From Candidatus Saccharimonadota bacterium (GTDB taxonomy: Bacteria > Pseudomonadota > Gammaproteobacteria > Enterobacterales > Enterobacteriaceae): a DNA stretch of 32,000 nt. The notes beneath the pieces were generated by a model, which ran no database searches, was not told the DNA's origin, and was given only the letters and a program-made list of their open reading frames with translations. Both the position numbers and the translations under genes were made by a program. The stretch spans positions 1-32,000 of the forward strand of contig CP188086.1 of assembly GCA_049942765.1 (NCBI GenBank), given 5' to 3'. Positions within the stretch are counted from its first letter, which is position 1. Each line of letters starts with the position of its first letter. This document shows positions 1-30,850 of this stretch, in pieces.

Positions 1-383
1 AAAAATAAACCTATATGAGTTGTTTGTTTTTATAGAACAATATAGTTTTAACATAAACTGTTTGATTGTAAACATGTTGTTAACATTATTTTTATTTTAA
101 TAAATTATACAAATAAAAAAAAAAATATACAAATAAAAATATAGAAAGATATTTGCATTTATTTTTACTTATATATTTTTATATTTTATGAATAGATAAT
201 CAAAATATCAAATGTTATGAATATTATAAACATTTATTTTTGTTTTATAAATTATTAATTAATTAATGATAATTTAGTACTAAAAATATTATATTTGATA
301 ACATCAAAATATGAATTTTTAACATAAATTAAATTGATGTTTTCGTTTTTTAAAAAACATTTTAATATTTAATTTATTTTATT

Positions 384-3300
384 ATTAAAGAGAATAAAGA
401 TAGTAAGATACTAAAGAGAATTAAAAGATTAAAGACCATGATAGTATTAAAGAGAATAAAGATAGTAAGATACTAAAGAGAATTAAAAGATTAAAGACCA
501 TGATAGTATTAAAGAGAATAAAGATAAGATACTAAAAGAATACTAAAGAGAATTAAAAGATTAAAGACCATGATAAAGACCATATAAAGTATAAAGAGAA
601 TAAAGATAGTAAGATACTAAAAGAATTAAAAGATTAAAGACCATGATAGTATTAAAGAGAATAAAGAATAGTAAGATACTAAAAGAATTAAAAGATTAAA
701 GACCATGATAGTATTAAAAGAATAAAGATATAGAGAATTAAAAGATTAAAGACCATGATAGTATTAAAGAGAATAAAGATAATAAGATACTAAAGAGAAT
801 TAAAAGATTAAAGACCATATTAAAGAGAATAAAGATAGTAAGATACTAAAGAGAATTAAAAGATTAAAGACCATGATAGTATTAAAGAGAATAAAGATAG
901 TAAGATACTAAAGAGAATTAAAAGATTAAAGACCATGATAGTATTAAAGAGAATAAAGATAGTAAGATACTAAAGAGAATTAAAAGATTAAAGACCATGA
1001 TAGTATTAAAGAGAATAAAGATAGTAAGATACTAAAGAGAATTAAAAGATTAAAGACCATGATAGTATTAAAGAGAATAAAGATAGTAAGATACTAAAGA
1101 GAATTAAAAGATTAAAGACCATGATAGTATTAAAGAGAATAAAGATAGTAAGATACTAAAGAGAATTAAAAGATTAAAGACCATGATAGTATTAAAGAGA
1201 ATAAAGATAGTAAGATACTAAAAGAATTAAAAGATTAAAGAAGATACTAAAGATAGTAAATTAAAAGATTAAAGACCATGATAGTATTAAAGAGAATAAA
1301 GATAGTAAGATACTAAAGAGAATTAAAAGATTAAAGACCATGATAGTATAAAGAGAATAAAAGTAAGAATAAAGATAGATAAAGAGAATTAAAAGATTAA
1401 AGACCATGATAGTATTAAAGAGAATAAAGATAGTAAGATACTAAAGAGAATTAAAAGATTAAAGACCATGATAGTATTAAAGAGAAAAGATAGTAAGATA
1501 CTAAAGAGAATTAAAAGATTAAAGACCATGATAGTATTAAAGAGAATAAAGATAGTAAGATACTAAAGAGAATTAAAAGATTAAAGACCATAAAGAGAAT
1601 AAAAGATTATTAAATTAAAGAATAAAGATAGTAAGATACTAAAGAGAATTAAAAGATTAGTATTAAAGAGAATAAAGATAGTAAGATACTAAAGAGAATT
1701 AAAAGATTAAAGACCATGATAGTATTAAAAAGAATAAAGATAGTAAGATACTAAAGAGAATTAAAAGATTAAAGACCATGATAGTATTAAAGAGAATAAA
1801 GATAGTAAGATACTAAAGAGAATTAAAAGATTAAAGACCATGATAGTATTAAAGAGAATAAAGATAGTAAGATACTAAAGAGAATTAAAAGATTAAAGAC
1901 CATGATAGTATTAAAGAGAATAAAGATAGTAAGATACTAAAGAGAATTAAAAGATTAAAGACCATGATAGTATTAAAGAGAATAAAGATAGTAAGATACT
2001 AAAGAGAATTAAAAGATTAAAGACCATGATAGTATTAAAGAGAATAAAGATAGTAAGATACTAAAGAGAATTAAAAGATTAAAGACCATGATAGTATTAA
2101 AGAGAATAAAGATAGTAAGATACTAAAGAGAATTAAAAGATTAAAGACCATGATAGTATTAAAGAGAATAAAGATAGTAAGATACTAAAGAGAATTAAAA
2201 GATTAAAGACCATGATAGTATTAAAGAGAATAAAGATAGTAAGATACTAAAGAGAATTAAAAGATTAAAGACCATGATAGTATTAAAGAGAATAAAGATA
2301 GTAAGATACTAAAGAGAATTAAAAGATTAAAGACCATGATAGTATTAAAGAGAATAAAGATAGTAAGATACTAAAGAGAATTAAAAGATTAAAGACCATG
2401 ATAGTATTAAAGAGAATAAAGATAGTAAGATACTAAAGAGAATTAAAAGATTAAAGACCATGATAGTATTAAAGAGAATAAAGATAGTAAGATACTAAAG
2501 AGAATTAAAAGATTAAAGACCATGATAGTATTAAAGAGAATAAAGATAGTAAGATACTAAAAAGAATTAAAAGATTAAAGACCATGATAGTATTAAAGAG
2601 AATAAAGATAGTAAGATACTAAAGAGAATTAAAAGATTAAAGACCATGATAGTATTAGATACTAAAGAGAATTAAAAGATTAAAGACCATGATAGTATTA
2701 AAGAGAATAAAGATAGTAAGATACTAAAGAGAATTAAAAGATTAAAGACCATGATAGTATTAAAGAGAATAAAGATAGTAAGATACTAAAGAGAATTAAA
2801 AGATTAAAGACCATGATAGTATTAAAAGAGAATAAAGATAGTAAGATACTAAAGAGAATTAAAAGATTAAAGACCATGATAGTATTAAAGAGAATAAAGA
2901 TAGTAAGATACTAAAGAGAATTAAAAGATTAAAGACCATGATAGTATGATAGTAAAAGAATAAAGATAGTAAGATACTAAAGAGAATTAAAAGATTAAAG
3001 ACCATGATAGTATTAAAGAGAATAAAGATAGTAAGATACTAAAGAGAATTAAAAGATTAAAGACCATGATAGTATTAAAGAGAATAAAGATAGTAAGATA
3101 CTAAAGAGAATTAAAAGATTAAAGACCATGATAGTATTAAAAGAGAATAAAGATAGTAAGATACTAAAGAGAATTAAAAGATTAAAGACCATGATAGTAT
3201 TAAAGAGAATAAAGATATAAGATAAAGAGAATTAAAAGATTAAAGACCAAAGTATTAAAGACCTAAAGAGAATTAAAAGATTAAAGACCATAGTATTAAA

Positions 3301-5590
3301 GAGAATAAAGATAGTAAGATACTAAAGAGAATTAAAAGATTAAAGACCATGATAGTATTAAAGAGAATAAAGATAGTAAGATACTAAAGAGAATTAAAAG
3401 ATTAAAGACCATGATAGTATTAAAGAGAATAAAGATAGTAAGATACTAAAGAGAATTAAAAGATTAAAGACCATGATAGTATTAAAGAGAATAAAGATAG
3501 TAAGATACTAAAGAGAATTAAAAGATTAAAGACCATGATAGTATTAAAGAGAATAAAGATAGTAAGATACTAAAGAGAATTAAAAGATTAAAGACCATGA
3601 TAGTATTAAAGAGAAATAAAGATAGTAAGATACTAAAGAGAATTAAAAGATTAAAGACCATGATAGTATTAAAGAGAATAAAGATAGTAAGATACTAAAG
3701 AGAATTAAAAGATTAAAGACCATGATAGTATTAAAGAGAATAAAGATAGTAAGATACTAAAGAGAATTAAAAGATTAAAGACCATGATAGTATAAAGAGA
3801 ATAAAGATAGTATTAAAGAGAATTAAAAGATTAAAGACCATGAAGTATTATTAAAAGATTAAAGACCATGATAGTATTAAAGAGAATAAAGAATTAAAAG
3901 ATTAAAGACCATGATAGTATTAAAGAGAATAAAGATAGTAAAAGATACTAAAGAGAATTAAAAGATTAAAGACCATGATAGTATTAAAGAGAATAAAGAT
4001 AGTAAGATACTAAAGAGAATTAAAAGATTAAAGACCATGATAGTATTAAAGAGAATAAAGATAGTAAGATACTAAAGAGAATTAAAAGATTAAAGACCAT
4101 GATAGTATTAAAGAGAATAAAGATAGTAAGATTAAAGAGAATTAAAGAAAAGATTAAAGACCATGATAGTATTAAAGAGAATAAAGATAGTAAGATACTA
4201 AAGAGAATTAAAAGATTAAAGACCATGATAGTATTAAAGAGAATAAAGATAGTAAGATACTAAAGAGAATTAAAAGATTAAAGACCATGATAGTATTAAA
4301 GAGAATAAAGATAGTAAGATAAAAGAGAATTAAAAGATTAAAGACCATGATAGTATTAAAGAGAATAAAGATAAAGATATAGAATTAAAAGATTAAGTAT
4401 ATAAAGAGAATTAAAGAGAAAAAGATTAAAGACCATGATAGTATTAAAGAGAATAAAGATAGTAAGATACTAAAGAGAATTAAAAGATTAAAGACCATGA
4501 TAGTATTAAAGAGAATAAAGATAGTAAGATACTAAAGAGAATTAAAAGATTAAAGACCATGATAGTATTAAAGAGAATAAAGATAGTAAGATACTAAAGA
4601 GAATTAAAAGATTAAAGACCATGATAGTATTAAAGAGAATAAAGATAGTAAGATACTAAAGAGAATTAAAAGATTAAAGACCATGATAGTATTAAAGAGA
4701 ATAAAGATAGTAAGATACTAAAGAGAATTAAAAGATTAAAGACCATGATAGTATTAAAGAGAATAAAGATAGTAAGATACTAAAGAGAATTAAAAGATTA
4801 AAGACCATGATAGTATTAAAGAGAATAAAGATAGTAAGATACTAAAGAGAATTAAAAGATTAAAGACCATGATAGTATTAAAGAGAATAAAGATAGTAAG
4901 ATACTAAAGAGAATTAAAAGATTAAAGACCATGATAGTATTAAAGAGAATAAAGATAGTAAGATACTAAAGAGAATTAAAAGATTAAAGACCATGATAGT
5001 ATTAAAGAGAATAAAGATAGTAAGATACTAAAGAGAATTAAAAGATTAAAGACCATGATAGTATTAAAGAGAATAAAGATAAAAGAATTAAAAGATAAAG
5101 ACCATGATAGTATTAAAGAGAATAAAATTAAAAGATTAAAGACCATGATAGTATAAAGAGAATAAAGATATAAGTAAAGAGAATTAAAAGATTAAAGACC
5201 ATAATAGTATTAAAGAGACCATGATAGTATTAAAATAAAGATAAAAGATTAAAGATACTAAAGAGAATTAAAAGATTAAAGACCATGATAGTAAAAGATT
5301 AAAGACCAAAGTATTAAAGAATAAAGATAGTAAGATACTAAAGAGAATTAAAAGATTAAAGACCATGATAGTATTACTAAAAGAGAATAAAGATAAAAAG
5401 ATTAAAGACCATGATACTAAAGTAAGAATTAAAAGATTAAAGACCATGATAGTATTAAAGAGAATAAAGATAGTAAGATACTAAAGAGAATTAAAAGATT
5501 AAAGACCATGATAGTATTAAAGAGAATAAAGATAGTAAGATACTAAAGAGAATTAAAAGATTAAAGACCATGATAGTATTAAAGAGAATA
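384..5590. repeat. Satellite-like tandem repeat array: 62-bp unit, ~84 copies, ~5.2 kb, non-coding
   Basis: Consensus unit is ATTAAAGAGAATAAAGATAGTAAGATACTAAAGAGAATTAAAAGATTAAAGACCATGATAGT. In perfect stretches the pattern advances 2 nt per 60-nt line, giving a 62-bp period. The first recognisable unit starts at ~384 (ATTAAAG). The last partial unit ends at ~5590 (AAAGAGAATA, followed by unrelated TGTATCTAAT). Stop codons occur in all frames of both strands, and only one spurious 68-aa ORF falls in the whole array. Confidence 0.97.
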
Positions 5591-5651
5591 TGTATCTAAT
5601 TTAAGATTGCAACTGTATTATAATATGGAATATATAATATTATGGATCTTA

Positions 5652-5679
5652 TTGATAAATAAATGTAATTATGTATAAT
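5652..5679 (+). promoter_or_regulatory. Possible sigma70-type promoter upstream of yfgM (TTGATA, 16-nt spacer, TATAAT)
   Basis: TTGATA at 5652-5657 and TATAAT at 5674-5679, ~90 nt upstream of the yfgM ATG. Hexamers like these arise easily by chance in DNA this AT-rich. Confidence 0.25.
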
Positions 5680-5769
5680 AATTAAAATTGATTTTAATCA
5701 TAATTATAAAATTAGTTATTTAAAATTTTTTTTGTATGTAATTTTATTTAGTTTTTTAATGAGAATAAT

Positions 5770-6384
5770 ATGTTCTGTCAATTAAATTTTTTTACTTTAT
5801 TTACTACAGATATAAAGAAAAATAAATTTTTTCTAACATTGTTGTTTTTTGTGTGTTTGTTATTTTGTGTGATATTTTGTTTTTATGTTAACAAAGAATA
5901 TAATGTTGGTGTTGACTTTGATACTTATGATTTTTTATCTCAGAAATTAGATGAACGAACTTATTTGATTAATCACTATGATAAATTAAAAAAATTTTTA
6001 TTAAGTAACCATAATATTTATGGAACTTTGATTGCTTTAAAATTAGCTTCTAAGTATTTTGAGTTAGGAAAAATTGATAATGCTATTCAGTTATTGAAAT
6101 CATGTTTATTATATACATCAGATGATTATTTTCGAACAGTGATATGTTTACGATGGGTACACATGGAAATGGAAAAAAGAAAATTAAATATAGTTCCTAG
6201 TATATTAAATAAAATTGATTATGAATCTTGGATAAATTTTATAACAGATATTAAAGGTGATTTGTTTATGTTACAACAAAAAAAACAATTAGCTTTAAAT
6301 TCTTGGAAAAAAAGTTATTTTTATGAACAAGATAATATTTTAAAAAATATTATACGAATGAAAATTAACTATGTTGCAGAATAG
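5770..6384 (+). CDS. yfgM: YfgM-like membrane-anchored TPR-like protein (ancillary SecYEG translocon subunit)
   Basis: 204 aa, against ~206 aa in E. coli. It has one N-terminal TM helix (FFLTLLFFVCLLFCVIFCFYV). Recalled E. coli YfgM segments align: NTYGALASLELAQQF with NIYGTLIALKLASKYF, DTSDENLKAVINLRLARV with YTSDDYFRTVICLRWVHM, and C-terminal MQMKINNL with IRMKINYV. It sits directly upstream of der, as in E. coli. Confidence 0.85.
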   Translation: MFCQLNFFTLFTTDIKKNKFFLTLLFFVCLLFCVIFCFYVNKEYNVGVDFDTYDFLSQKLDERTYLINHYDKLKKFLLSNHNIYGTLIALKLASKYFELGKIDNAIQLLKSCLLYTSDDYFRTVICLRWVHMEMEKRKLNIVPSILNKIDYESWINFITDIKGDLFMLQQKKQLALNSWKKSYFYEQDNILKNIIRMKINYVAE

Positions 6385-6440
6385 TATGAATTTTTTTTTA
6401 ATGAAATTTTCATGTATATGATGAAAAAAGGAATTAATAT

Positions 6441-7826
6441 ATGATACCGATAATTTCAATTATTGGTAGAAACAATGTAGGAAAATCTACAATATTTAAT
6501 CAATTTACAAAAACGAAAGATGCTTTAGTCACAGATATCCCTGGAACAACTCGAGATAGACAATATGGATATGTTTCTATTAACAATAAAAAATTAATCT
6601 TTGTAGATACAGCGGGTTTAAGTGATCAAAATCACACTATAATAGCAATTAAAAATAAAACTGTGAATCAAACTAATATAGCTATTCAGATGTCAGATAT
6701 TATTGTGTTTGTAGTGAATGCGTATGAAGGTTTGTTACCTACAGATTATGATATAATTAATAATATTAGAAAAACTAAACAAAATATTTTTTTAGTAATA
6801 AATAAAATTGATTTATTAAGAAATGATATTTCTTTTAAATTAGAATTTTATGATTTAGGTTTTCAAAAAATTTATTATGTTTCTGCTTTAAAAAAAATAG
6901 GTTTTAGTTCATTAGTTGATGATTTTTTAAAGCAAATTAAATATTTACAGGAAACTTCAATACATACAGTTCACAGAAAAGATAAGAATTCTTCAATATT
7001 ATATAAAGATATAAATCATTTTTGTAGTAATAACCATTTAAAATTAATTGTGCTTGGAAAACCTAATGTAGGAAAATCTACTTTAATCAATTCTTTAATA
7101 GGTGAACAAAGAGTTATTACTCATGATTGTGCTGGAACAACTAGAGATATGATTTTTATTCCTTTATTACATGAAAATAAAAAATATATATTGATAGATA
7201 CTGCTGGTATTTTAAAAATCAAACATAAAACTAATTATATTCAATATATTTCGTCGAAAAAAACATTATCATATATCGATAAAAGCAACGTTGTTTTACT
7301 TGTGATAGATGTATTAGAATGTATTACAAATCAGGATTTATCTTTGTTAAACGTAGTAATGAAATTAGGTAAATCTATGATTATTTTGATCAATAAATGG
7401 GATTTAATACCTGTTCACAAAAGAAAATTTACTAGATTATGTGTAGAACACAAATTAAAATTTTTAAAAAATTTTAAAATCCATTATATTTCTGCATTGC
7501 ATTCAATGAATGTAAAAAAAATAATGTTAATGGCTGATCGATTATATAAATTATCTATGACTAAATTAAGTTCTTTAAAATTAAATATTATAATGAAATC
7601 GGCTGTTGGTGAACATGCACCACCATTAATTAATGGTCATAAAATAAAATTTAAATATGTACATCCAGGAGGGTATGATCCATTAATTGTTATAGTGCAT
7701 GGTACTAAATTAAAGTATTTAATTAACTCTTATAAACAATATTTAATAAATTATTTTCAAAGATCTCTAAATTTAATTAATATCCCTTTGAAATTATATT
7801 TTAAAGATCATAGTAAAGTATTATGA
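6441..7826 (+). CDS. der: Ribosome-associated GTPase Der (EngA), two tandem G domains plus KH-like C-terminus
   Basis: 461 aa with two P-loops (GRNNVGKST and GKPNVGKST), two DTAG motifs and two NKxD motifs (NKID, NKWD). An AAGGA Shine-Dalgarno lies upstream of the ATG. Confidence 0.95.
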   Translation: MIPIISIIGRNNVGKSTIFNQFTKTKDALVTDIPGTTRDRQYGYVSINNKKLIFVDTAGLSDQNHTIIAIKNKTVNQTNIAIQMSDIIVFVVNAYEGLLPTDYDIINNIRKTKQNIFLVINKIDLLRNDISFKLEFYDLGFQKIYYVSALKKIGFSSLVDDFLKQIKYLQETSIHTVHRKDKNSSILYKDINHFCSNNHLKLIVLGKPNVGKSTLINSLIGEQRVITHDCAGTTRDMIFIPLLHENKKYILIDTAGILKIKHKTNYIQYISSKKTLSYIDKSNVVLLVIDVLECITNQDLSLLNVVMKLGKSMIILINKWDLIPVHKRKFTRLCVEHKLKFLKNFKIHYISALHSMNVKKIMLMADRLYKLSMTKLSSLKLNIIMKSAVGEHAPPLINGHKIKFKYVHPGGYDPLIVIVHGTKLKYLINSYKQYLINYFQRSLNLINIPLKLYFKDHSKVL

Positions 7827-7889: not shown

Positions 7890-8225
7890 TTATGATTCGT
7901 TAACATGATTAATAGTATAGAATGGTATTTCTATTTCGACATCTTTATCACCTAATCTTGCTTGACATCCTAATCGACTGTATTGTTGTACTCCCCAGGC
8001 TTTATCTAATACATCTTCTTCTTGTTCATTTATGTTAGATAGAGATTCGAATCCAGAATGGATAATACAATGGCAGGTGCTACAGGCACAAGATTTTTCG
8101 CATGCATGTTCCATGTGAATTCTATTGTTTAAAGCTATTTCTAAAATACTTTCTCCTGATTTTGCATTAATGGTTTTTTTTTTTTTTTCTTGCATAACAT
8201 AAAATATAAATGTAACTTTCGGCAT
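7890..8225 (-). CDS. fdx: ISC-type [2Fe-2S] ferredoxin
   Basis: 111 aa. HACEKSCACSTCHC and the later Cys (LGCQA) match the E. coli Fdx cluster ligands, and the C-terminus EIPFYTINH aligns with EIPRYTINH. It is the last gene of the isc cluster. An in-frame A15 run encodes EKKKKT at 8174-8188. Confidence 0.95.
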   Translation of the reverse strand: MPKVTFIFYVMQEKKKKTINAKSGESILEIALNNRIHMEHACEKSCACSTCHCIIHSGFESLSNINEQEEDVLDKAWGVQQYSRLGCQARLGDKDVEIEIPFYTINHVNES

Positions 8226-8405: not shown

Positions 8406-9922
8406 CTAAATGTGATTTATATCATTAATTAATTTATTTTTTTGTTTTTTGGATGATTTATCCATAGCTATGACGTTTAGTAATCCTTCAGCATTAATTT
8501 CAAATGTTATAGAAATTTTATGTGTTCCAGCTAATTTAGGTTCTAGTCCTTTAAATGAAAATCGTTGTAGAGATTTACAGTGTTTAACTTGATCTGATTC
8601 TCCTTGTAATATATGAATGATAATAGCAGTTTGACCATCTTTATAAGTTGTGAATTCTTTAGTTTGAGAAGTTGGTATTTTAGTATTTTTAAAAATGATT
8701 TTTTCTACTAAACCACCTATTACTTCTATACCTAATGATAATGGCAGAACATCTAATAATAACCAATTATTTTTTGGTTTATGTGTTATTAGGTTATGAG
8801 CATGTATAGCAGATCCTAATGCAACAGTTTCTTCTGGATTTAAAGTAGATAATGGTGTTTGTTGAAAAAATATTTCAACTTTTTGTTTGATGAATGGAAT
8901 GTGAGTAGAACCTCCTACTAATATAATATTATTAATATTTTTTAATTTAATTTTAGCGTCATTTAAAGCGATTTTACAGCAATTTAATGTTTTATTTATG
9001 GAAGGTTCAATTAATTCATTAAATTCTGTTCTAGTGATGGAATAAGATGTATTTTTGTGTTTAAAAGGAACATTGATAAATTTTGATAATTGTTTTTTGA
9101 TATTTTTAGCTGATAAAAAAAATTTTTGACGTTCATCTAAAGTAATATTACTTTGATTTAGTTTTAATTTTGATAATATATGATTATATAACATGTAGTC
9201 AAAGTCATCACCACCTAAATTAGTATCTCCATTAGTAGCTAACACTTCAAAAATATTTTTGTTTATTTTTAATATTGAAAAATCAAAAGTACCTCCTCCT
9301 AAATCATAAATAGCAATAATTCCTTTTTTTGAGTTATTAAAACCATATGCAATAGCAGCAGCTGTTGGTTCATTTAATAAACGAAAATTAGTTAATCCTG
9401 ATTGTATAATAGCTTCTTTTGTTGCTTTTCTTTGAACATCATTAAAATATGCAGGAACAGTAATTACTGCATATTCAATGTTTTTTTTGTGATTGTTTGT
9501 TGTTCTTTTTATTAATGATTGAATTATTTTGCTTGAAATTTGAGTAACTGAAAACATTCCCTGTACAGTTGAAATTAAGGTTTGGTTATTTTTATCTGCT
9601 GAGAGCAAATATGGTATGTTTGGATATAGACGTTTAATTGTTTCTAAAGATAGTCCCATCAGACGTTTTATAGAGACAATGGTATTAGTAATATCAGTAT
9701 TAAGATAATTAATGGCTTTCTGACCTACAGTAATTTTATTAGGACCAACATGTACAATAGAATGTAAAATTTTATGGTTATGATGATCAGTTAATATTTT
9801 CAATTGATTATTGTAATTAGTAGCAATTAAAGAATGTGTAGTACCTAAATCAATTCCAATAGAAAACTTGTTAGTTTGGTGAATATCAATATTTTTATTT
9901 TTTTTTTAATATGTGTTATCAT
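8406..9922 (-). pseudogene. hscA: Fe-S cluster chaperone HscA (Hsp70 family), frameshifted in an A10 tract near the 5' end and missing the C-terminal helical lid
   Basis: The tracked ORF (8406-9803, TTG start) begins at the equivalent of about residue 50. The same frame continues upstream through KNKNIDIHQTNKFSIGIDLGTTHSLIATNYNNQ, which contains the Hsp70 phosphate-1 motif, and reaches an in-frame TAA. An ATG at 9922-9920 lies 11 nt after the hscB stop, reads MITHIKKK into the A10 run (T10 on + at 9898-9907), and is one base out of frame. The product would be ~505 aa, against 616 aa for E. coli HscA. It ends about 16 residues after the AMDKSS (AMEKST) segment. Confidence 0.85.
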
Positions 9923-12537: not shown

Positions 12538-12611
12538 GAGGGCGTAGTTCAATTAGGTAGAGCATCGGTCTCCAAAACCGAGTGTTGGGGGTTCGATTCC
12601 CTCCGCCCTTG
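12538..12611 (+). tRNA. trpT: tRNA-Trp (anticodon CCA)
   Basis: A cloverleaf can be drawn by hand. Acceptor stem GAGGGCG/CGCCCTT, anticodon arm TCGGT-CTCCAAA-ACCGA, T arm GGGGG-TTCGATT-CCCTC. Near-identical to recalled E. coli tRNA-Trp. The 3' CCA is not encoded. Confidence 0.9.
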
Positions 12612-12634
12612 TAAAATATGATAGAGAATGTTGA

Positions 12635-12733
12635 TTGTTTCATAATTTTATAAATTAAAAATAAGGTTTTAAATAAATTTCATAATGAAATTTATTTAAA
12701 ACCTTATTTTTAATTTATAAAATTATGAAACAA
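12635..12733. repeat. Perfect 99-bp palindrome (two 49-bp arms around a single central base) between tRNA-Trp and ilvD; possible terminator or RNA-structure element
   Basis: The reverse complement of the left arm (12635-12683) was checked base by base and equals the right arm (12685-12733); the centre is A12684. The right arm ends inside or next to the ilvD Shine-Dalgarno (AAGGA, 12733-12737), and the ATG is at 12744. Confidence 0.9.
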
Positions 12734-12743
12734 AGGAATTATT

Positions 12744-14582
12744 ATGTTAAAATATCGATCAAGCATAACGACTAGCGGAAAGAATATGGTTGGTGCACGT
12801 TCATTATGGAAAGCTACTGGAATGAAAGATGGAGATTTTAATAAACCTATCATCGCTATCGTGAATTCTTTTACAGAATTTGTACCTGGTCATATTCATT
12901 TACGTGGTGTAGGATCTATTGTTTCTCGATCTATCTATGATGCCGGAGGTGTTGCAAAAGAATTTAATACTATTGCTATAGATGATGGTATAGCAATGGG
13001 TCATTCTGGTATGTTGTATTCTCTACCTTCTAGGGAATTGATCGCTAATTCTATAGAATATATGATTAATGCACATTGTGTAGATGCTATGGTTTGTATT
13101 TCTAATTGTGATAAAATAACTCCAGGTATGTTAATGGCTGCATTACGTCTTAATATCCCCGTTGTTTTTGTTTCTGGTGGTCCAATGGAAGCTGGTCGTA
13201 TTTTAGATAGGGATAAAAAAATTATTAAATTAGATTTAGTTGATGCAATTATTCATGGATCTAAAAATTATTCTGAAGAACAGTCGAAAGTTATAGAAAA
13301 TGCTGCTTGCCCTACTTGTGGTTCATGTTCTGGATTATTTACTGCTAATTCGATGAATTGTCTTATGGAAGTGTTGGGTTTAGCATTACCTGGAAATGGT
13401 ACTTTATTAGCAACACATAAAGATCGGAAACAGTTGTTTATTGATATTGGAAAAATAATTGTTAAGATTACAAAATCTTATTATCAAAAAGGTAATAAAC
13501 AGGTTTTACCAAGAGTAATCGCAAATAAATCAGCTTTTAAAAATGCTATGATATTAGACATTGCTATAGGTGGTTCAACAAATACTATTTTACATTTATT
13601 AGCAGCTGCACATGAAGGTGAAGTTGATTTTGGTATCAAAGATATTGATCATTTGTCTAGACTAGTACCACATATATGTAAAGTTTCACCAAGTAGCTCA
13701 CAGTATTATATGGAAGATATGCACCGATCTGGTGGGGTTATGGGTATATTAGGTGAATTACAAAAAGTTAATTTGTTAGATGTGCAAACTAAAAATATTT
13801 TAGAATTAACATTAAAAGATACTTTAAGTCAATATGATGTAATGCAGACAACAAATAAACAAATAATAAAAATGTTTCGTGCTGGTCCTATGGGAGTACG
13901 TACTATTATACCATTTTCTCAAGAATTTCGATGGGATTCAATTGATAGTGATCGACGCTATGGATGTGTGCGATCTGTAGAGTATGCATATAGTAAAGAA
14001 GGTGGTTTAGCTGTATTATACGGTAACATTGCTAAAGATGGATGTGTAGTAAAAACGGCAGGTGTTAATAAAAACAATTATATTTTTGAAGGTGTTGCTA
14101 AAGTATATGAAAGTCAAGAAGATGCAGTGTATGCTATTTTAAATAGACAGGTTTTTGATGGTGATGTAGTGGTAATTAGATATGAAGGACCTAAAGGTGG
14201 TCCAGGTATGCAGGAAATGCTTTATCCTACAACATATTTAAAATCTATGAAATTAAATGAATCATGTGCTCTTATTACAGATGGAAGATTTTCAGGAGGA
14301 ACTGCTGGATTGTCTATAGGACATATATCTCCTGAAGCTGCCAATAAAGGTATAATTGCATTAGTAAAAGATGGTGATGTTATTATAATTAATATACCTA
14401 AACGTTTTATCCATCTTAATATTTCAGAAGAAGAACTCATCGTACGAAAAAAATTAGAAGAATCTCGAGGTCATAAAGCATATAAACCTCATTGCAAGCG
14501 TAAGAGAGTAGTTTCCTCTGCTTTAAAAATGTATTCTTTTTTTGCTACTAGTGCTGATCAAGGTGCTATTTTAAAAATGTAA
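12744..14582 (+). CDS. ilvD: Dihydroxy-acid dehydratase
   Basis: 612 aa (E. coli 616 aa). Conserved blocks include MLKYRS..TTxGxNMxGARx[19 protein letters not shown]-like CGSCSG, and FSGGT in the C-terminal region. Confidence 0.97.
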
Positions 14583-14726
14583 TGTATATAGTATTTATTA
14601 TACCTATCGTAATAGATAAATTTGATGTTATTATTAATATTTTAAATGGTTATTTTTTATTATAAAAATATTTTTATGTATGTTTTTATAATTGGATATC
14701 AATATAATTTTTTTTTGGACAAACAT

Positions 14727-16202
14727 ATGATAAATTATTTTAGTAACTTAAATTTTAGAAAACAATTGATAGAACTTCAAAAATGTCGTCTGATGAGATC
14801 AGAAGAATTTTATAGTCAATGTTCATGCTTAATTGAAAAAAAAATAGTTATTGTAGGATGTGGTTCTCAAGGATTAAATCAGGGTTTAAACATGAGAGAT
14901 TCAGGATTAAACATTTCCTTTGCTTTAAGATCAGAATCTATTCGTTCTAAAAACCAATCATGGAAAAGAGCTATTAAACATAATTTTCTTGTAGATACAT
15001 ATGAAAATTTAATTCCTAATGCAGATTTAGTTATTAATTTAACACCGGATAAACAACATACTATAGTAGTTAAAGAACTTCAACCACTAATGAAAAATGG
15101 ATCAATATTAGGATATTCACATGGATTTAATATCGTAGAAATGGGTGAAAATATTAGAAAAGATATTACTGTGGTTATGGTTGCACCTAAATGTCCTGGT
15201 TCAGAAGTTAGAGAAGAATATCAAAGAAATTTTGGAGTTCCAACGTTAATTGCTGTTCATCAAGAAAACGATCCGAAAAACATAGGTTTAGAAATTGCTA
15301 AAGCTTGGTCTGTAGCTTTAGGTAGTCATCATGCTGGAGTTTTAGAATCTTCTTTTGTAGCTGAAGTAAAATCAGATTTAATGGGAGAACAAACTATTTT
15401 ATGTGGTATGTTGCAAACTGGTAGTTTGGTATGTTATGAATATCTTATTGATCAAGGACATGATGCTGGTTATGCATGTAAGTTAATACAATATGGTTGG
15501 GAAGTCTTAACTGAATCGCTCAAACATGGTGGAATTACATTAATGTTAGATAGGGTTTCTAACACAGCAAAATTTAGAATATGTCAATTATCTTGTAAAT
15601 TAAAAAAATTGTTTAGACCATTATTTGAGAAGCATATGGATGATATTATTTCAGGTAATTTTTCTTCTAATATGATGTTAGATTGGAAGAATCATGATAA
15701 TCAATTGTTAACATGGAGAGAAGAAACAAAGCATACTAGTTTTGAAAATGCACCTAACTATACAGGCATGATTACAGAACAAGAGTATTTTAATCATTCT
15801 ATTTTTATGATTGCTATTATTAAATTTGGAGTTGAATTATCATTTGAAGTTATGACAGAAACCGGTATTATTCCAGAATCAGCATATTATGAATCTTTAC
15901 ATGAATTACCATTAATAGCAAATACAATTGCTAGAAAAAGATTATATGAAATGAATGTAGTAATATCAGATACAGCAGAATACGGTAATTATTTATTTTC
16001 TAAGTCTGCTTATCCTATTTTAAAAAAATTTGTAAAAACATTAGAATATGGTGACATGGGGCATGACATTATGTTTAAAAATATTAATAATATAGATTTG
16101 AATGCATTAAATTATGATATTGAACATCATGCTGCTATTGAATTAGTAGGTAAGGAATTAAGAAAAAAAATGAAAAATATGAAAGTTGTTTCTTGTATAT
16201 AA
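14727..16202 (+). CDS. ilvC: Ketol-acid reductoisomerase (class II)
   Basis: The tracked ORF starts at 14646. The ATG at 14727 gives [14 protein letters not shown], which aligns with the E. coli N-terminus MANYFNTLNLRQQL and yields 491 aa, the E. coli length. It carries the [22 protein letters not shown]-binding motif. Confidence 0.93.
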
Positions 16203-18441
16203 TACATATCAAATAATGTTTTTTTATAGAAGACTATAAGTATTACTCTTTTGTTAAATATAAATTAGTGGTTGAATTATTTGTAAAAATATCAATTTTA
16301 TATATAGATATAGTCGTATATAATAATATTATTAACTATTTTTATTAATTTTGAATTGTTAAATATAAAAGATTATTTTTTAAGCATTTAATGAAAGAAT
16401 ATATTTGTATGTATTAATTGGTTTTATTTATATTTTTTTTGCTAAAAAATTATGTTATATATTTAATTAATTATTTTATTATTAATCATAATTATATTAC
16501 TAATTTAGTAATAGTTACTTTTTAAGTAATAGAAAATATTAATAATATTAAATGTAATTATATAGTTAATAATTGTTAATTCTTCATGGATTATTTCTTC
16601 TTTAGTATAGATATATATATAATATTTAAATTCTATTATGAATATTTTAAATTAATTTCGAATATAGAGAAGCAATGTTAGTGTTTATGTTAAAAAACTA
16701 TTTTTATTAAATTTAAGTTAGTTAATAAAATTTAAAAAAAATAGTTTAATTAATTGTATAAATAATTAATGTTAATTGTTTTTTTGATTTTTATAAAAAA
16801 TATTATTTATATTTAATATATTTTTAAATGATGGATTTTAATAATTTATTCTTTTCTATGTTAAGATCGAATGATCTTTTAATAAAATTGATTTTTGTAA
16901 TACAAAGTGTAATATTAATCAATTTATAAGGTTAATATTTTTAAAAGATAAGCATATAAAATTATTGATGTGTTTAAGGTTACAATTTTATTGTATTAAA
17001 TAATAACTAGTTATATATTGTTGTATAATATTAACAATTAATTTTAGTTAGTATATATTTATAATAAAATTTATTAATATGAATATTAATGATGGAATAG
17101 AGTTTATATTTTATCTACAAAACATTAATAATATTGAATATTTTTAATTCTAATAATTTAATAAATTAATGAATTGTCGATATTGTCATGTAATGTTTAT
17201 GTTTAAAGTTAATATATATAATATTTATATATAAAGGAATTTAAGAAAATTTTTTTATACAAAATATATAAATTTTGTTGTTAAAAAAGAAATTTATTTT
17301 TATTGTTATATTATTTAAATATTTAATCTTTTTTATTATGTACGGAGTCTATTAATGTTTAAATATAATATAAAATTTTTAGATGTTAATTATTCAAAAT
17401 TTAAAAAATTGTTTTTTATTGATAATTCATTAATAATTTATAAGATTAATTTTATAGAACAGTTATTAATATTTTTTTTTGATTTTTATTAAAAAATAAA
17501 TTATATAAATTCAACATATTATTAAAAAATTATTATTTGAATTTTTTATCTAAGTAATTTCTTTTTAAATGTTATTAATATAATAATATATATTTTTATA
17601 TTTTGATTTATATTTTTTTTAAATTGTTGAAGTAATTGAACATTTATAAAATTTTTTATTGTAGAATGGATATTGATTTTTTATATATAAACTTTAAAAA
17701 AAATAAATATATATTAGATTAAATTTCATACTAATAGTATGGATATTTTTTAATATAAAATAGAAATAGAAAAAATATAAATTAATTACTATAGAAAATT
17801 TATTTTTTATTTTATTTACTATTAATACATATGTAGATATAGTATCTATGTTATAAATAACAATTATACAAGAAATAAATTTAAATTAATGATAAAAATA
17901 GTGATTTACTAGTAGTTGAGTTCAAAATATTTATTATATATAAATAACAATGGTGAATTATTAGTTATTAACGATAATAAAAATAAAATTAATATAGATC
18001 AACAATTGTATTGTATTAATATTAAAAATGTGAATAAATTCAACTAATTAATTGTAATAAAAATTAAAATATATATTTTAAATAATAAAATTTATCAATA
18101 TAAAATAAGTTTTTTATTAAATGTATTGTAAAAATTTTTAATTAATTACTTAATGATAATTATTTCAAAATTATAAAATATAATAATTATTATTCATGTA
18201 TTTTAATTAATTATTAAGATAAAATTTGATGTAATATATACAGTTCTTAAAATTTTTTCTATTTTTTTTAAAAATTTGTATATATAATCTATAAAATTAT
18301 TAATTTGATATAATTTTAATAAATTTTTTTTTATGTATTTAATAGTGATAAAATATTTAATAGATGAAAAGATTATTAATATAATTTAATTAATGTTATA
18401 TAATATTTTAATGTTTCACACATAACTTATATAGGTTTAAT
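16203..18441. other. 2.24-kb non-coding gene desert (no ORF of 60 aa or more), probably the eroded remnant of ancestral gene(s)
   Basis: The six-frame track lists no ORF in this interval. The sequence is almost pure A/T, with no GC-rich island that would suggest a structured RNA. In E. coli the ilvC-trxA interval carries ppiC, rep, gppA and rhlB. Confidence 0.7.
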
Positions 18442-29868: not shown

Positions 29869-30645
29869 TTACCAATAATTTTCAGTGGTAATTTGTCCTG
29901 GTGTTTTTTTTAAATTTTTTCTTAATTTTTTTGTTGTTTGTAATAATAATTTCATATGTTTAACCATATTTGGATTACCACAAATCATAACATGTGATGT
30001 TTTTGGTTGAATTTCATATCCAATTTTTATTTCTAACTGATTGTTGTGAATAAAATCAGTAATTCTTCCATGTAGAAATCTATGAGTATATTCCTGACTA
30101 GTGATAGCTTCAAAAATAAATCTATTTTTATATAGTTTTTTAAAGTGATTAATTAATGATATGTAGGTTAAATCATTAACATATTTTACAGAATGAATTA
30201 ATATAATTTTTTTAAATTTACATACCCAGGTACCTTCTTGTAAAATAGACAAGAATGGACCAATACCTGTTCCACTTGCAAACATCCATAGTATGTCGCA
30301 ATTATGAATGTTATCAATAGTAAAAAATCCAAATGAATTTTTATTAATTAATATATTATCTCCTGGTTTTAATTTGTATAGGTAATTAGTAAATGTACCT
30401 TGAGGAATTAAAGTGATGTAAAATTCTAAATTGCAGTTATTCGGAGAGTTAACATAAGAATAAGCTCGTTGTATTGTTTTTCCATTAGTGTTAATCATTG
30501 CTAGTTGGTTAAATTGCCCTGCTGAAAAAGGTTTAATTGGTGCTCTTATGATTATGCTAAATAAGAACTTTGTCCATTTTGTAATTTTGAAGACAGTACC
30601 GTTCAGCCATCTATTCATATTGATTGCTATTTTCTTTTTGATCAA
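29869..30645 (-). CDS. fpr: Ferredoxin/flavodoxin-NADP+ reductase
   Basis: 258-aa ORF. Matches E. coli Fpr at FSAGQFNQL (FTAGQFTKL), QRAYSYVNSPNNCNLEFY (QRAYSYVNSPDNPDLEFY), WMFASGTGIGPFLSIL, SHVMICGNPNMV and the C-terminal TTENYW (TAEHYW). The internal ATG at 30618 (MNRWLNG) aligns better with the E. coli N-terminus and may be the true start. Confidence 0.93.
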   Translation of the reverse strand: MIKKKIAINMNRWLNGTVFKITKWTKFLFSIIIRAPIKPFSAGQFNQLAMINTNGKTIQRAYSYVNSPNNCNLEFYITLIPQGTFTNYLYKLKPGDNILINKNSFGFFTIDNIHNCDILWMFASGTGIGPFLSILQEGTWVCKFKKIILIHSVKYVNDLTYISLINHFKKLYKNRFIFEAITSQEYTHRFLHGRITDFIHNNQLEIKIGYEIQPKTSHVMICGNPNMVKHMKLLLQTTKKLRKNLKKTPGQITTENYW

Positions 30646-30850
30646 AATTGATATGATGATTTTATCAAAGAAGAAGATTTATTAACACAGTTTTATAGAA
30701 TTAATTTAATATTTAATTGTGTTTAAAGTATTTTTAATTTTTTATATTAATAAATATATTATTGCGCATATAGTAAATTACCTATATAAAATATATTTAT
30801 AATAGGTAATTTTATGTAATGTTAATTATTTAATATTTTTAATTAATAGT

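Follow-up and report, generated by a model that had tools for sequence, protein, structure and literature searches.

The spacer between tRNA-Trp and ilvD in the genome analysed here (GCA_049942765.1, contig CP188086.1, 627,315 bp; hereafter G000) raises the question of how a long palindrome arises between two genes and what keeps it perfect. The genome is a single contig with a GC content of about 22% overall and about 20-28% by 2-kb window, and the window, meaning the whole stretch of 32,000 nucleotides that was analysed, carries hscA, hscB, iscU and iscS on the minus strand followed by tRNA-Trp, ilvD and ilvC on the plus strand. A sequence-only reading had described two arms that are exact reverse complements, lying 23 nt after the tRNA gene and ending at the Shine-Dalgarno sequence of ilvD. 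A repeat search gave the same arms, complementary at 49 of 49 positions, and the positions of the tRNA end, the Shine-Dalgarno sequence and the start codon agreed as well (Table 1). The element is thus an intergenic palindrome of 99 bp with a gap of 1 nt.

Table 1. Features of the trpT-ilvD region of G000, and giant palindromes in G000 and four relatives
Feature	Genome	Position	Strand	Description
tRNA-Trp	G000	12538-12611	+	CCA anticodon; upstream neighbour of the palindrome; ARAGORN; Rfam tRNA, 62.9 bits
tRNA-Trp-to-palindrome spacer	G000	12612-12634	+	23 nt, unpaired
Left arm	G000	12635-12683		49 nt; 100% complementary to right arm (repeat search)
Core, left half	G000	12653-12668		AATTAAAAATAAGGTT; A-tract and stem base; 15/16 identical in G003, 13/16 in G004 (alignments, blastn)
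Inner terminator-like hairpin	G000	12662-12716	both	~20 pairs (3 G-C), then T-run; consensus scan
Axis of symmetry	G000	12684		one central base
Right arm	G000	12685-12733		49 nt; final base doubles as the first A of the Shine-Dalgarno sequence of ilvD
Core, right half	G000	12700-12715		AACCTTATTTTTAATT; stem base and T-tract; mirror of left half
ilvD Shine-Dalgarno	G000	12733-12737	+	AAGGA; only first base paired
ilvD	G000	12744-14582	+	dihydroxy-acid dehydratase; ATG at 12744; NF009103, 1055 bits
ilvC	G000	14646-16202	+	ketol-acid reductoisomerase; downstream gene of the unit
trpT-ilvD palindrome	G000	12635-12733		arms 49 bp, loop 1, 0 mismatches
trpT-ilvD palindrome	G004			arms 49 bp, loop 2, 0 mismatches
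trpT-ilvD palindrome	G003			arms 65 bp, loop 0, 0 mismatches
trpT-ilvD palindrome	G052	582402-582495 (locus L158)		arms 46 bp, loop 2
purH-metE palindrome	G000	597504-597646		arms 71 bp, 0 mismatches; overlaps metE end
purH-metE palindrome	G003	30337-30519		arms 91 bp, 0 mismatches
purH-metE palindrome	G004	30469-30652		arms 73 bp, 1 mismatch
Census	G000 (627 kb)			two perfect giants, arms 71 and 49; longest after these 22
Census	G004 (627 kb)			arms 60, 59, 49 and 36 perfect; one more of 73 (purH-metE; 1 mismatch, loop 38 nt)
Census	G003 (607 kb)			18 giants, arms 33-91; 16 perfect, 2 with one mismatch
Census	G052 (588 kb)			one of 46; next 31 and 28
Census	G002 (531 kb, sister clade)			none above 20

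Folding in silico, a check that the earlier reading had proposed, showed the palindrome to be very stable both as RNA (-56.9 kcal/mol, z = -12.3, with 0 of 200 shuffles as good) and as single-stranded DNA (-44.8 kcal/mol, z = -15.2). When the whole 627,315-bp genome was searched for further copies of the arm, as had also been proposed, the arm sequence turned out to be single-copy. In a scan against Rfam 15 the tRNA alone exceeded its gathering threshold and the palindrome matched no RNA family, its best scores being subthreshold resemblances to plant miRNA precursors (28.5 bits versus 83). A promoter scan of the arms found 10 sites, against 7.0 ± 2.7 in shuffles, and thus gave no evidence of promoters. 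A chance origin is excluded, since the next longest perfect hairpin of G000 has arms of only 22 bp and a 531-kb sister genome of similar composition (G002) has none above 20.

We then compared the region upstream of ilvD in 63 small genomes of 0.4-1.2 Mb, G000 included, which we call Buchnera-like as a descriptive term. A search with the IlvD protein returned free-living bacteria only and was of no use for comparing the spacer, since the protein is too conserved. Among the 63 genomes the trpT-ilvD spacer holds a giant perfect palindrome in four (G000, G004, G003 and G052), and in the remaining 59 a mismatch-tolerant scan found no giant palindrome, the best hairpins having arms of at most 24 bp. 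A tree built from the N terminus of IlvD together with IscS (501 columns, 63 rows, of which 17 were without IscS) recovered a clade consisting of G000, G003 and G004 (SH-aLRT, 97), whose sister clade (G001, G002 and G005) is entirely without the palindrome. In the comparison of related spacers that the earlier reading had called for, the two closest relatives, G003 and G004, proved to have in this spacer a perfect palindrome that is homologous to that of G000. The spacer separating it from the tRNA is not conserved, measuring 10 and 18 nt in these relatives. G052 lies far from this clade in the tree and its arms have no similarity to those of G000, G003 or G004, indicating that palindromes originated in this spacer twice, and independently. 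On account of G052, the trpT-ilvD spacer seems prone to palindrome formation.

Elsewhere in the window, positions 383-5590 hold ~80 tandem copies of a 62-nt unit (87% matches; 5.2 kb in all), an array that is purine rich on the plus strand (GC skew of ~0.5, AT skew of 0.3-0.4) and almost devoid of ORFs, which is remarkable in a reduced genome of 627 kb. At a comparable place, G002 has repeat-encoded ORFs (5081-7189). The hscA frame (8406-9803, minus strand) encodes only 465 amino acids, covering HMM positions 42-500 of 621, and is followed by a 111-amino-acid ORF (7890-8225); as judged from these frames, hscA may be truncated or split. On the other side of the palindrome, the segment after ilvC (16203-18441) is free of ORFs and has a GC content of ~13%.

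Sequence comparison within the clade showed that the arms have diverged. Those of G004 and G003 are identical at 32 of 43 positions (1 of 500 shuffles as good) and those of G000 match the other two at 32 of 44 and 35 of 48 (about 21 of 500 shuffles as good), all of these figures being upper estimates because the sequence is AT rich and of low complexity. For ~30 nt the outer arms of G003 can be aligned in register with those of G004, and the two have rare G's and the outer boundary in common, while the homology of the G000 arm to both is only modestly above shuffles outside a 16-nt core. Each pair of arms compared differs by 11-13 substitutions plus indels, yet there are 0 mismatches within each genome, so that each fixed substitution or indel is present in both arms. 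The indels between genomes are internal as well as central, leaving a varying amount of sequence beside the axis, and the 163 pairs at this locus in G000, G003 and G004 include neither a G-U (G-T) pair nor a bulge. The symmetry comes as close as 0-2 nt to the axis, which is of no use to an RNA hairpin with its required loop of at least 3 nt. We infer that independent compensatory point mutations can neither mirror indels nor keep symmetry this close to the axis. At 4-fold-degenerate sites, ilvD differs by 51-54% among the three genomes, showing that the carriers are deeply diverged. The sequence-only reading had held the element to be either very young or maintained; with homologous palindromes in three diverged genomes, each of them perfect, maintenance is favored and youth disfavored.

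To see this locus in its genomic setting, giant palindromes, defined as those with arms of at least 33 bp, were counted in G000 and in four relatives (G002, G003, G004 and G052) rebuilt from overlapping 20-kb pieces. The search was ungapped (score of +1/-2), with a maximum loop of 30 nt for G000 and G004 versus 60 nt for G003, G002 and G052, and it undercounts palindromes whose arms differ by an indel. It returned 18 giants in G003, 5 in G004, 2 in G000, 1 in G052 and 0 in G002. Summed over the five genomes, the giants contain 3 mismatches in ~1,470 paired positions, and there was no tail of long decayed or imperfect palindromes in this census. If nothing corrected the arms, more decayed than perfect copies would be expected. 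The three mismatched pairs, all in giants of G003 and G004, hint at possible intermediates.

Of the G003 giants, 6 lie in convergent, 6 in divergent and 5 in tandem spacers, and the ends of ORFs are overlapped by several of them, and one giant of G004 lies between the divergent genes serS and trxB. Giants thus occur in convergent, divergent and tandem spacers, and perfection is not tied to one transcript architecture. Another perfect palindrome of G004, with 59-bp arms (44761-44886), separates a Thr-Tyr-Gly-Thr tRNA cluster from secE, an arrangement identical to that of trpT, palindrome and ilvD. A palindrome between purH and metE is common to G000, G003 and G004 and absent from G002 and G052 (Table 1). 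The 25 giants compared are each single-copy and form no sequence family, their only similarities, within and between genomes, being short AT-rich chance matches.

The part of the trpT-ilvD palindrome that has changed least is the 16-nt block AATTAAAAATAAGGTT with its mirror, which is nearly invariant; its consensus, AATTAAAAAyAAGGTT / AACCTTrTTTTTAATT, is conserved across the three carriers of the clade. A scan for the terminator consensus gave 4 hits, compared to 0.1 expected in shuffles, covering 12662-12706 plus TTTTTAATTT on both strands, so that a G/C-containing hairpin is directly followed by a T/U run, as in an intrinsic terminator; the T-run is weak in G004. The inner hairpin therefore looks like a bidirectional intrinsic terminator buried in the palindrome, and a terminator role limited to this inner 20-bp hairpin and its T-run is plausible. 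RNA polymerase arriving from the tRNA gene would transcribe the T-run ahead of the outer right arm, and the core could thus still terminate. As far as sequence conservation can tell, selection looks to act on the inner core alone (A-tract, GG/CC stem base and T-tract), which would terminate the tRNA transcript. A terminator seed as a general rule was unsupported, as 6 of the 17 giants in G003 are flanked by the starts of divergent genes.

The outer end of the palindrome falls at the ribosome-binding site of ilvD. In G000, G003 and G004 it lies 10-11 nt before the start codon, at the Shine-Dalgarno sequence, where complementarity stops abruptly, and in G052 it lies 25 nt before the start codon. 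As the palindrome stops short in every carrier, it does not pair with the Shine-Dalgarno sequence beyond the first base. Since the outer arms of G000, G003 and G004 are homologous, these three ends represent one inherited boundary and not an independent replication of the pattern. Its placement is consistent with selection against burying the ilvD ribosome-binding site.

We also surveyed replication and repair genes. No recA match was found in G000, a 99.7%-complete genome (positive controls in 14 genomes), so that any correction of its arms would be independent of RecA; sbcC and xseA were not found either (positive controls elsewhere). The genome does encode mutS, sbcB (ExoI), rnc (RNase III) and rho. 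In E. coli, quasipalindrome mutations are suppressed by two exonucleases, of which ExoI is one. Perfect palindromes in E. coli form hairpins that are cleaved by SbcCD (Azeroglu et al., 2014, PMC4245961), and the tolerance of the palindrome in G000 is plausibly explained by SbcC not being found there.

In a comparison of all ORFs, priA and dnaT were not found in G000, G003 or G004, whereas both are present in the palindrome-free G002 (confirmed by HMM) and in G052. Loss of the PriA-DnaT replication-restart primosome in the clade ancestor might then have caused giant palindromes genome-wide, with stalled nascent ends folding back and copying themselves. Under this proposal the hairpins would be self-perpetuating and growing, halted only at selected sequence, and the trpT-ilvD palindrome would now double as trpT terminator and ilvD leader. 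We regard this cause as a long shot, because the pattern concerns one evolutionary branch only and G052 has both genes and yet one giant; it is only a lead. Among the ORFs common to G000, G003 and G004 and missing from G002, no DNA repair gene was recognized by eye from N-terminal sequence, the sole replication-related candidate being a fast-evolving holA-like ORF. Mismatch repair is not among these ORFs and so does not account for the contrast between the two clades. A full-length Rep helicase is encoded beside ilvC in G003, G004 and G052, and no rep was found in G000 or G002; loss of Rep was rejected as a cause on this distribution, since G003 and G004, both rich in palindromes, have the gene and it was not found in the palindrome-free G002.

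Taken together, these data make it probable that the palindrome is an overgrown trpT terminator hairpin that has turned into a self-maintaining DNA palindrome. In the ancestry of this small group of Buchnera-like aphid symbionts, a long inverted repeat would have grown out of the hairpin that follows tRNA-Trp, and from then on a substitution or indel in one arm would be either copied to the other arm or erased. The likeliest route of this upkeep would be fold-back (intrastrand) template switching of the nascent strand at replication, for which RecA is not needed. Template switching is described as correcting imperfect inverted repeats to perfect ones and as able to create and maintain stems (PMC5941160; PMC8794818), and also as lengthening repeats (PMC5941160; PMC8794818; PMC7202029; PMC13100816). 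The earlier reading had named it as a possible origin; it would be the best-fitting mechanism for origin and upkeep alike. What speaks against it is that the suppressor exonuclease gene sbcB is still present in G000, and mismatch repair on an extruded hairpin (mutS is present) or another RecA-independent conversion between the arms would leave the same footprint. The palindrome would survive in the absence of the hairpin nuclease subunit SbcC, and its rightward spread would be limited by selection on the ilvD ribosome-binding site.

The pairing could instead be kept by selection on an RNA duplex, acting as a terminator, RNase III site or insulator between the tRNA and ilvDC, with compensatory mutations restoring lost pairs. 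The palindrome does lie in a presumably transcribed position between tRNA-Trp and ilvD, is predicted to fold very stably as a 49-bp RNA duplex, is terminator-like in its inner part and stops at the Shine-Dalgarno sequence in three genomes; G052 has acquired an unrelated palindrome in the corresponding spacer, and G000 encodes RNase III (rnc). We nevertheless consider this reading unlikely, as 163 pairs without a G-U pair or bulge, indels mirrored in both arms and symmetry up to an axis where RNA cannot pair are not what it predicts, and 59 of 63 relatives do without the palindrome. Moreover, equally perfect giants in divergent promoter spacers and inside coding ends of the same clade show that RNA-level roles, be it as RNase III substrate, as insulator or in occluding the ribosome-binding site, are not needed for perfection. 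Selection is weak in reduced symbionts of this type, and 49-91 consecutive perfect pairs would be beyond its reach. That the palindromes were instead born recently and independently in each lineage, through a single event of inverted duplication where hairpins form readily, with perfection reflecting youth, is more doubtful still. G052 shows that a separate origin in this spacer is possible, and the range from 0 to 18 giants per genome implies ongoing gain and loss. However, the outer arms of G003 and G004 stay in register, with their rare G's and outer boundary in common, and the purH-metE locus has an identical three-genome distribution; it would be unparsimonious to assume three separate births at either locus, every one of them only a few mutations ago.

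An assembly or library artefact, about which the earlier reading had warned and which chimeric reads can in principle generate, is very improbable: the palindromes of G003 and G004, two independently assembled genomes, are homologous to that of G000, perfect, differently spelled and flanked by an intact tRNA-Trp and ilvD. Least credible of all is that the palindrome is one copy of a REP-, MITE- or RPE-type mobile element or the target of an enzyme acting on hairpins, either of which would suit its palindromic shape and intergenic location. REP/BIME, MITE and RPE elements occur in multiple copies, whereas the arm is single-copy in G000, the giants share nothing beyond short AT-rich chance matches, no flanking direct repeat was seen and no Rfam family was matched.

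The overgrown and self-maintaining hairpin that we favor resembles several known systems. Quasipalindrome correction by short-range template switching, as in the Ripley model and the E. coli lacZ quasipalindrome reporters (PMC7202029), likewise yields exactly complementary arms and mirrors multibase and indel changes, is independent of RecA and can lengthen the repeat. Conserved perfect inverted repeats have been described in Proteobacteria (PMC5941160), as have the creation and upkeep of RNA stems (PMC8794818). Described quasipalindromes mostly have stems of ~6-20 bp, whereas the arms at the present loci measure 49-91 bp, are nearly spacerless and persist across deeply diverged species. In Blochmannia, the endosymbionts of ants, intergenic palindromes of 62-136 bp number from 6 to 20 per species (Williams and Wernegreen, 2010, PMC3017870); there, too, an AT-rich, reduced insect endosymbiont carries long intergenic palindromes whose count varies between species. 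The 99-bp palindrome with its 1-nt gap falls within the bounds of that study (at least 30 bp, a gap of at most 20 bp, intergenic, in a reduced AT-rich endosymbiont). The Blochmannia study, on a different symbiont lineage, allowed up to 3 mismatches and proposed selection, and it did not trace orthologues or mirrored changes. Among the papers searched for Buchnera palindromes, none describes such elements.

Like a bidirectional intrinsic terminator, the palindrome has a G/C-closed inner hairpin with A-tract and T-tract flanks, directly after an RNA gene, and a conserved core; unlike one, it is predicted from its sequence to continue the stem ~18 pairs past the T-tract on both sides, and up to the axis, well in excess of what a terminator requires. 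It also resembles the palindromes engineered into the E. coli chromosome, which are likewise perfect and expected to form hairpins at replication (Azeroglu et al., 2014, PMC4245961). There they are hotspots of double-strand breaks that need recombinational repair, whereas the palindrome of G000 is tolerated in a genome in which sbcC and recA were not found.

For annotation, these findings call for caution, as perfect covariation at such palindromes is no proof of a selected RNA structure. For the biology of these symbionts, they mean that a perfect palindrome of 100-180 bp can persist for a very long time, with 4-fold-degenerate sites of ilvD saturated between carriers, while its sequence drifts and although no recA was found. 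The palindrome thus documents, in nature, how one arm is copied from the other in the absence of homologous recombination, and the range from 0 to 18 giants among close relatives provides a natural comparison for which losses of replication and repair functions permit them.
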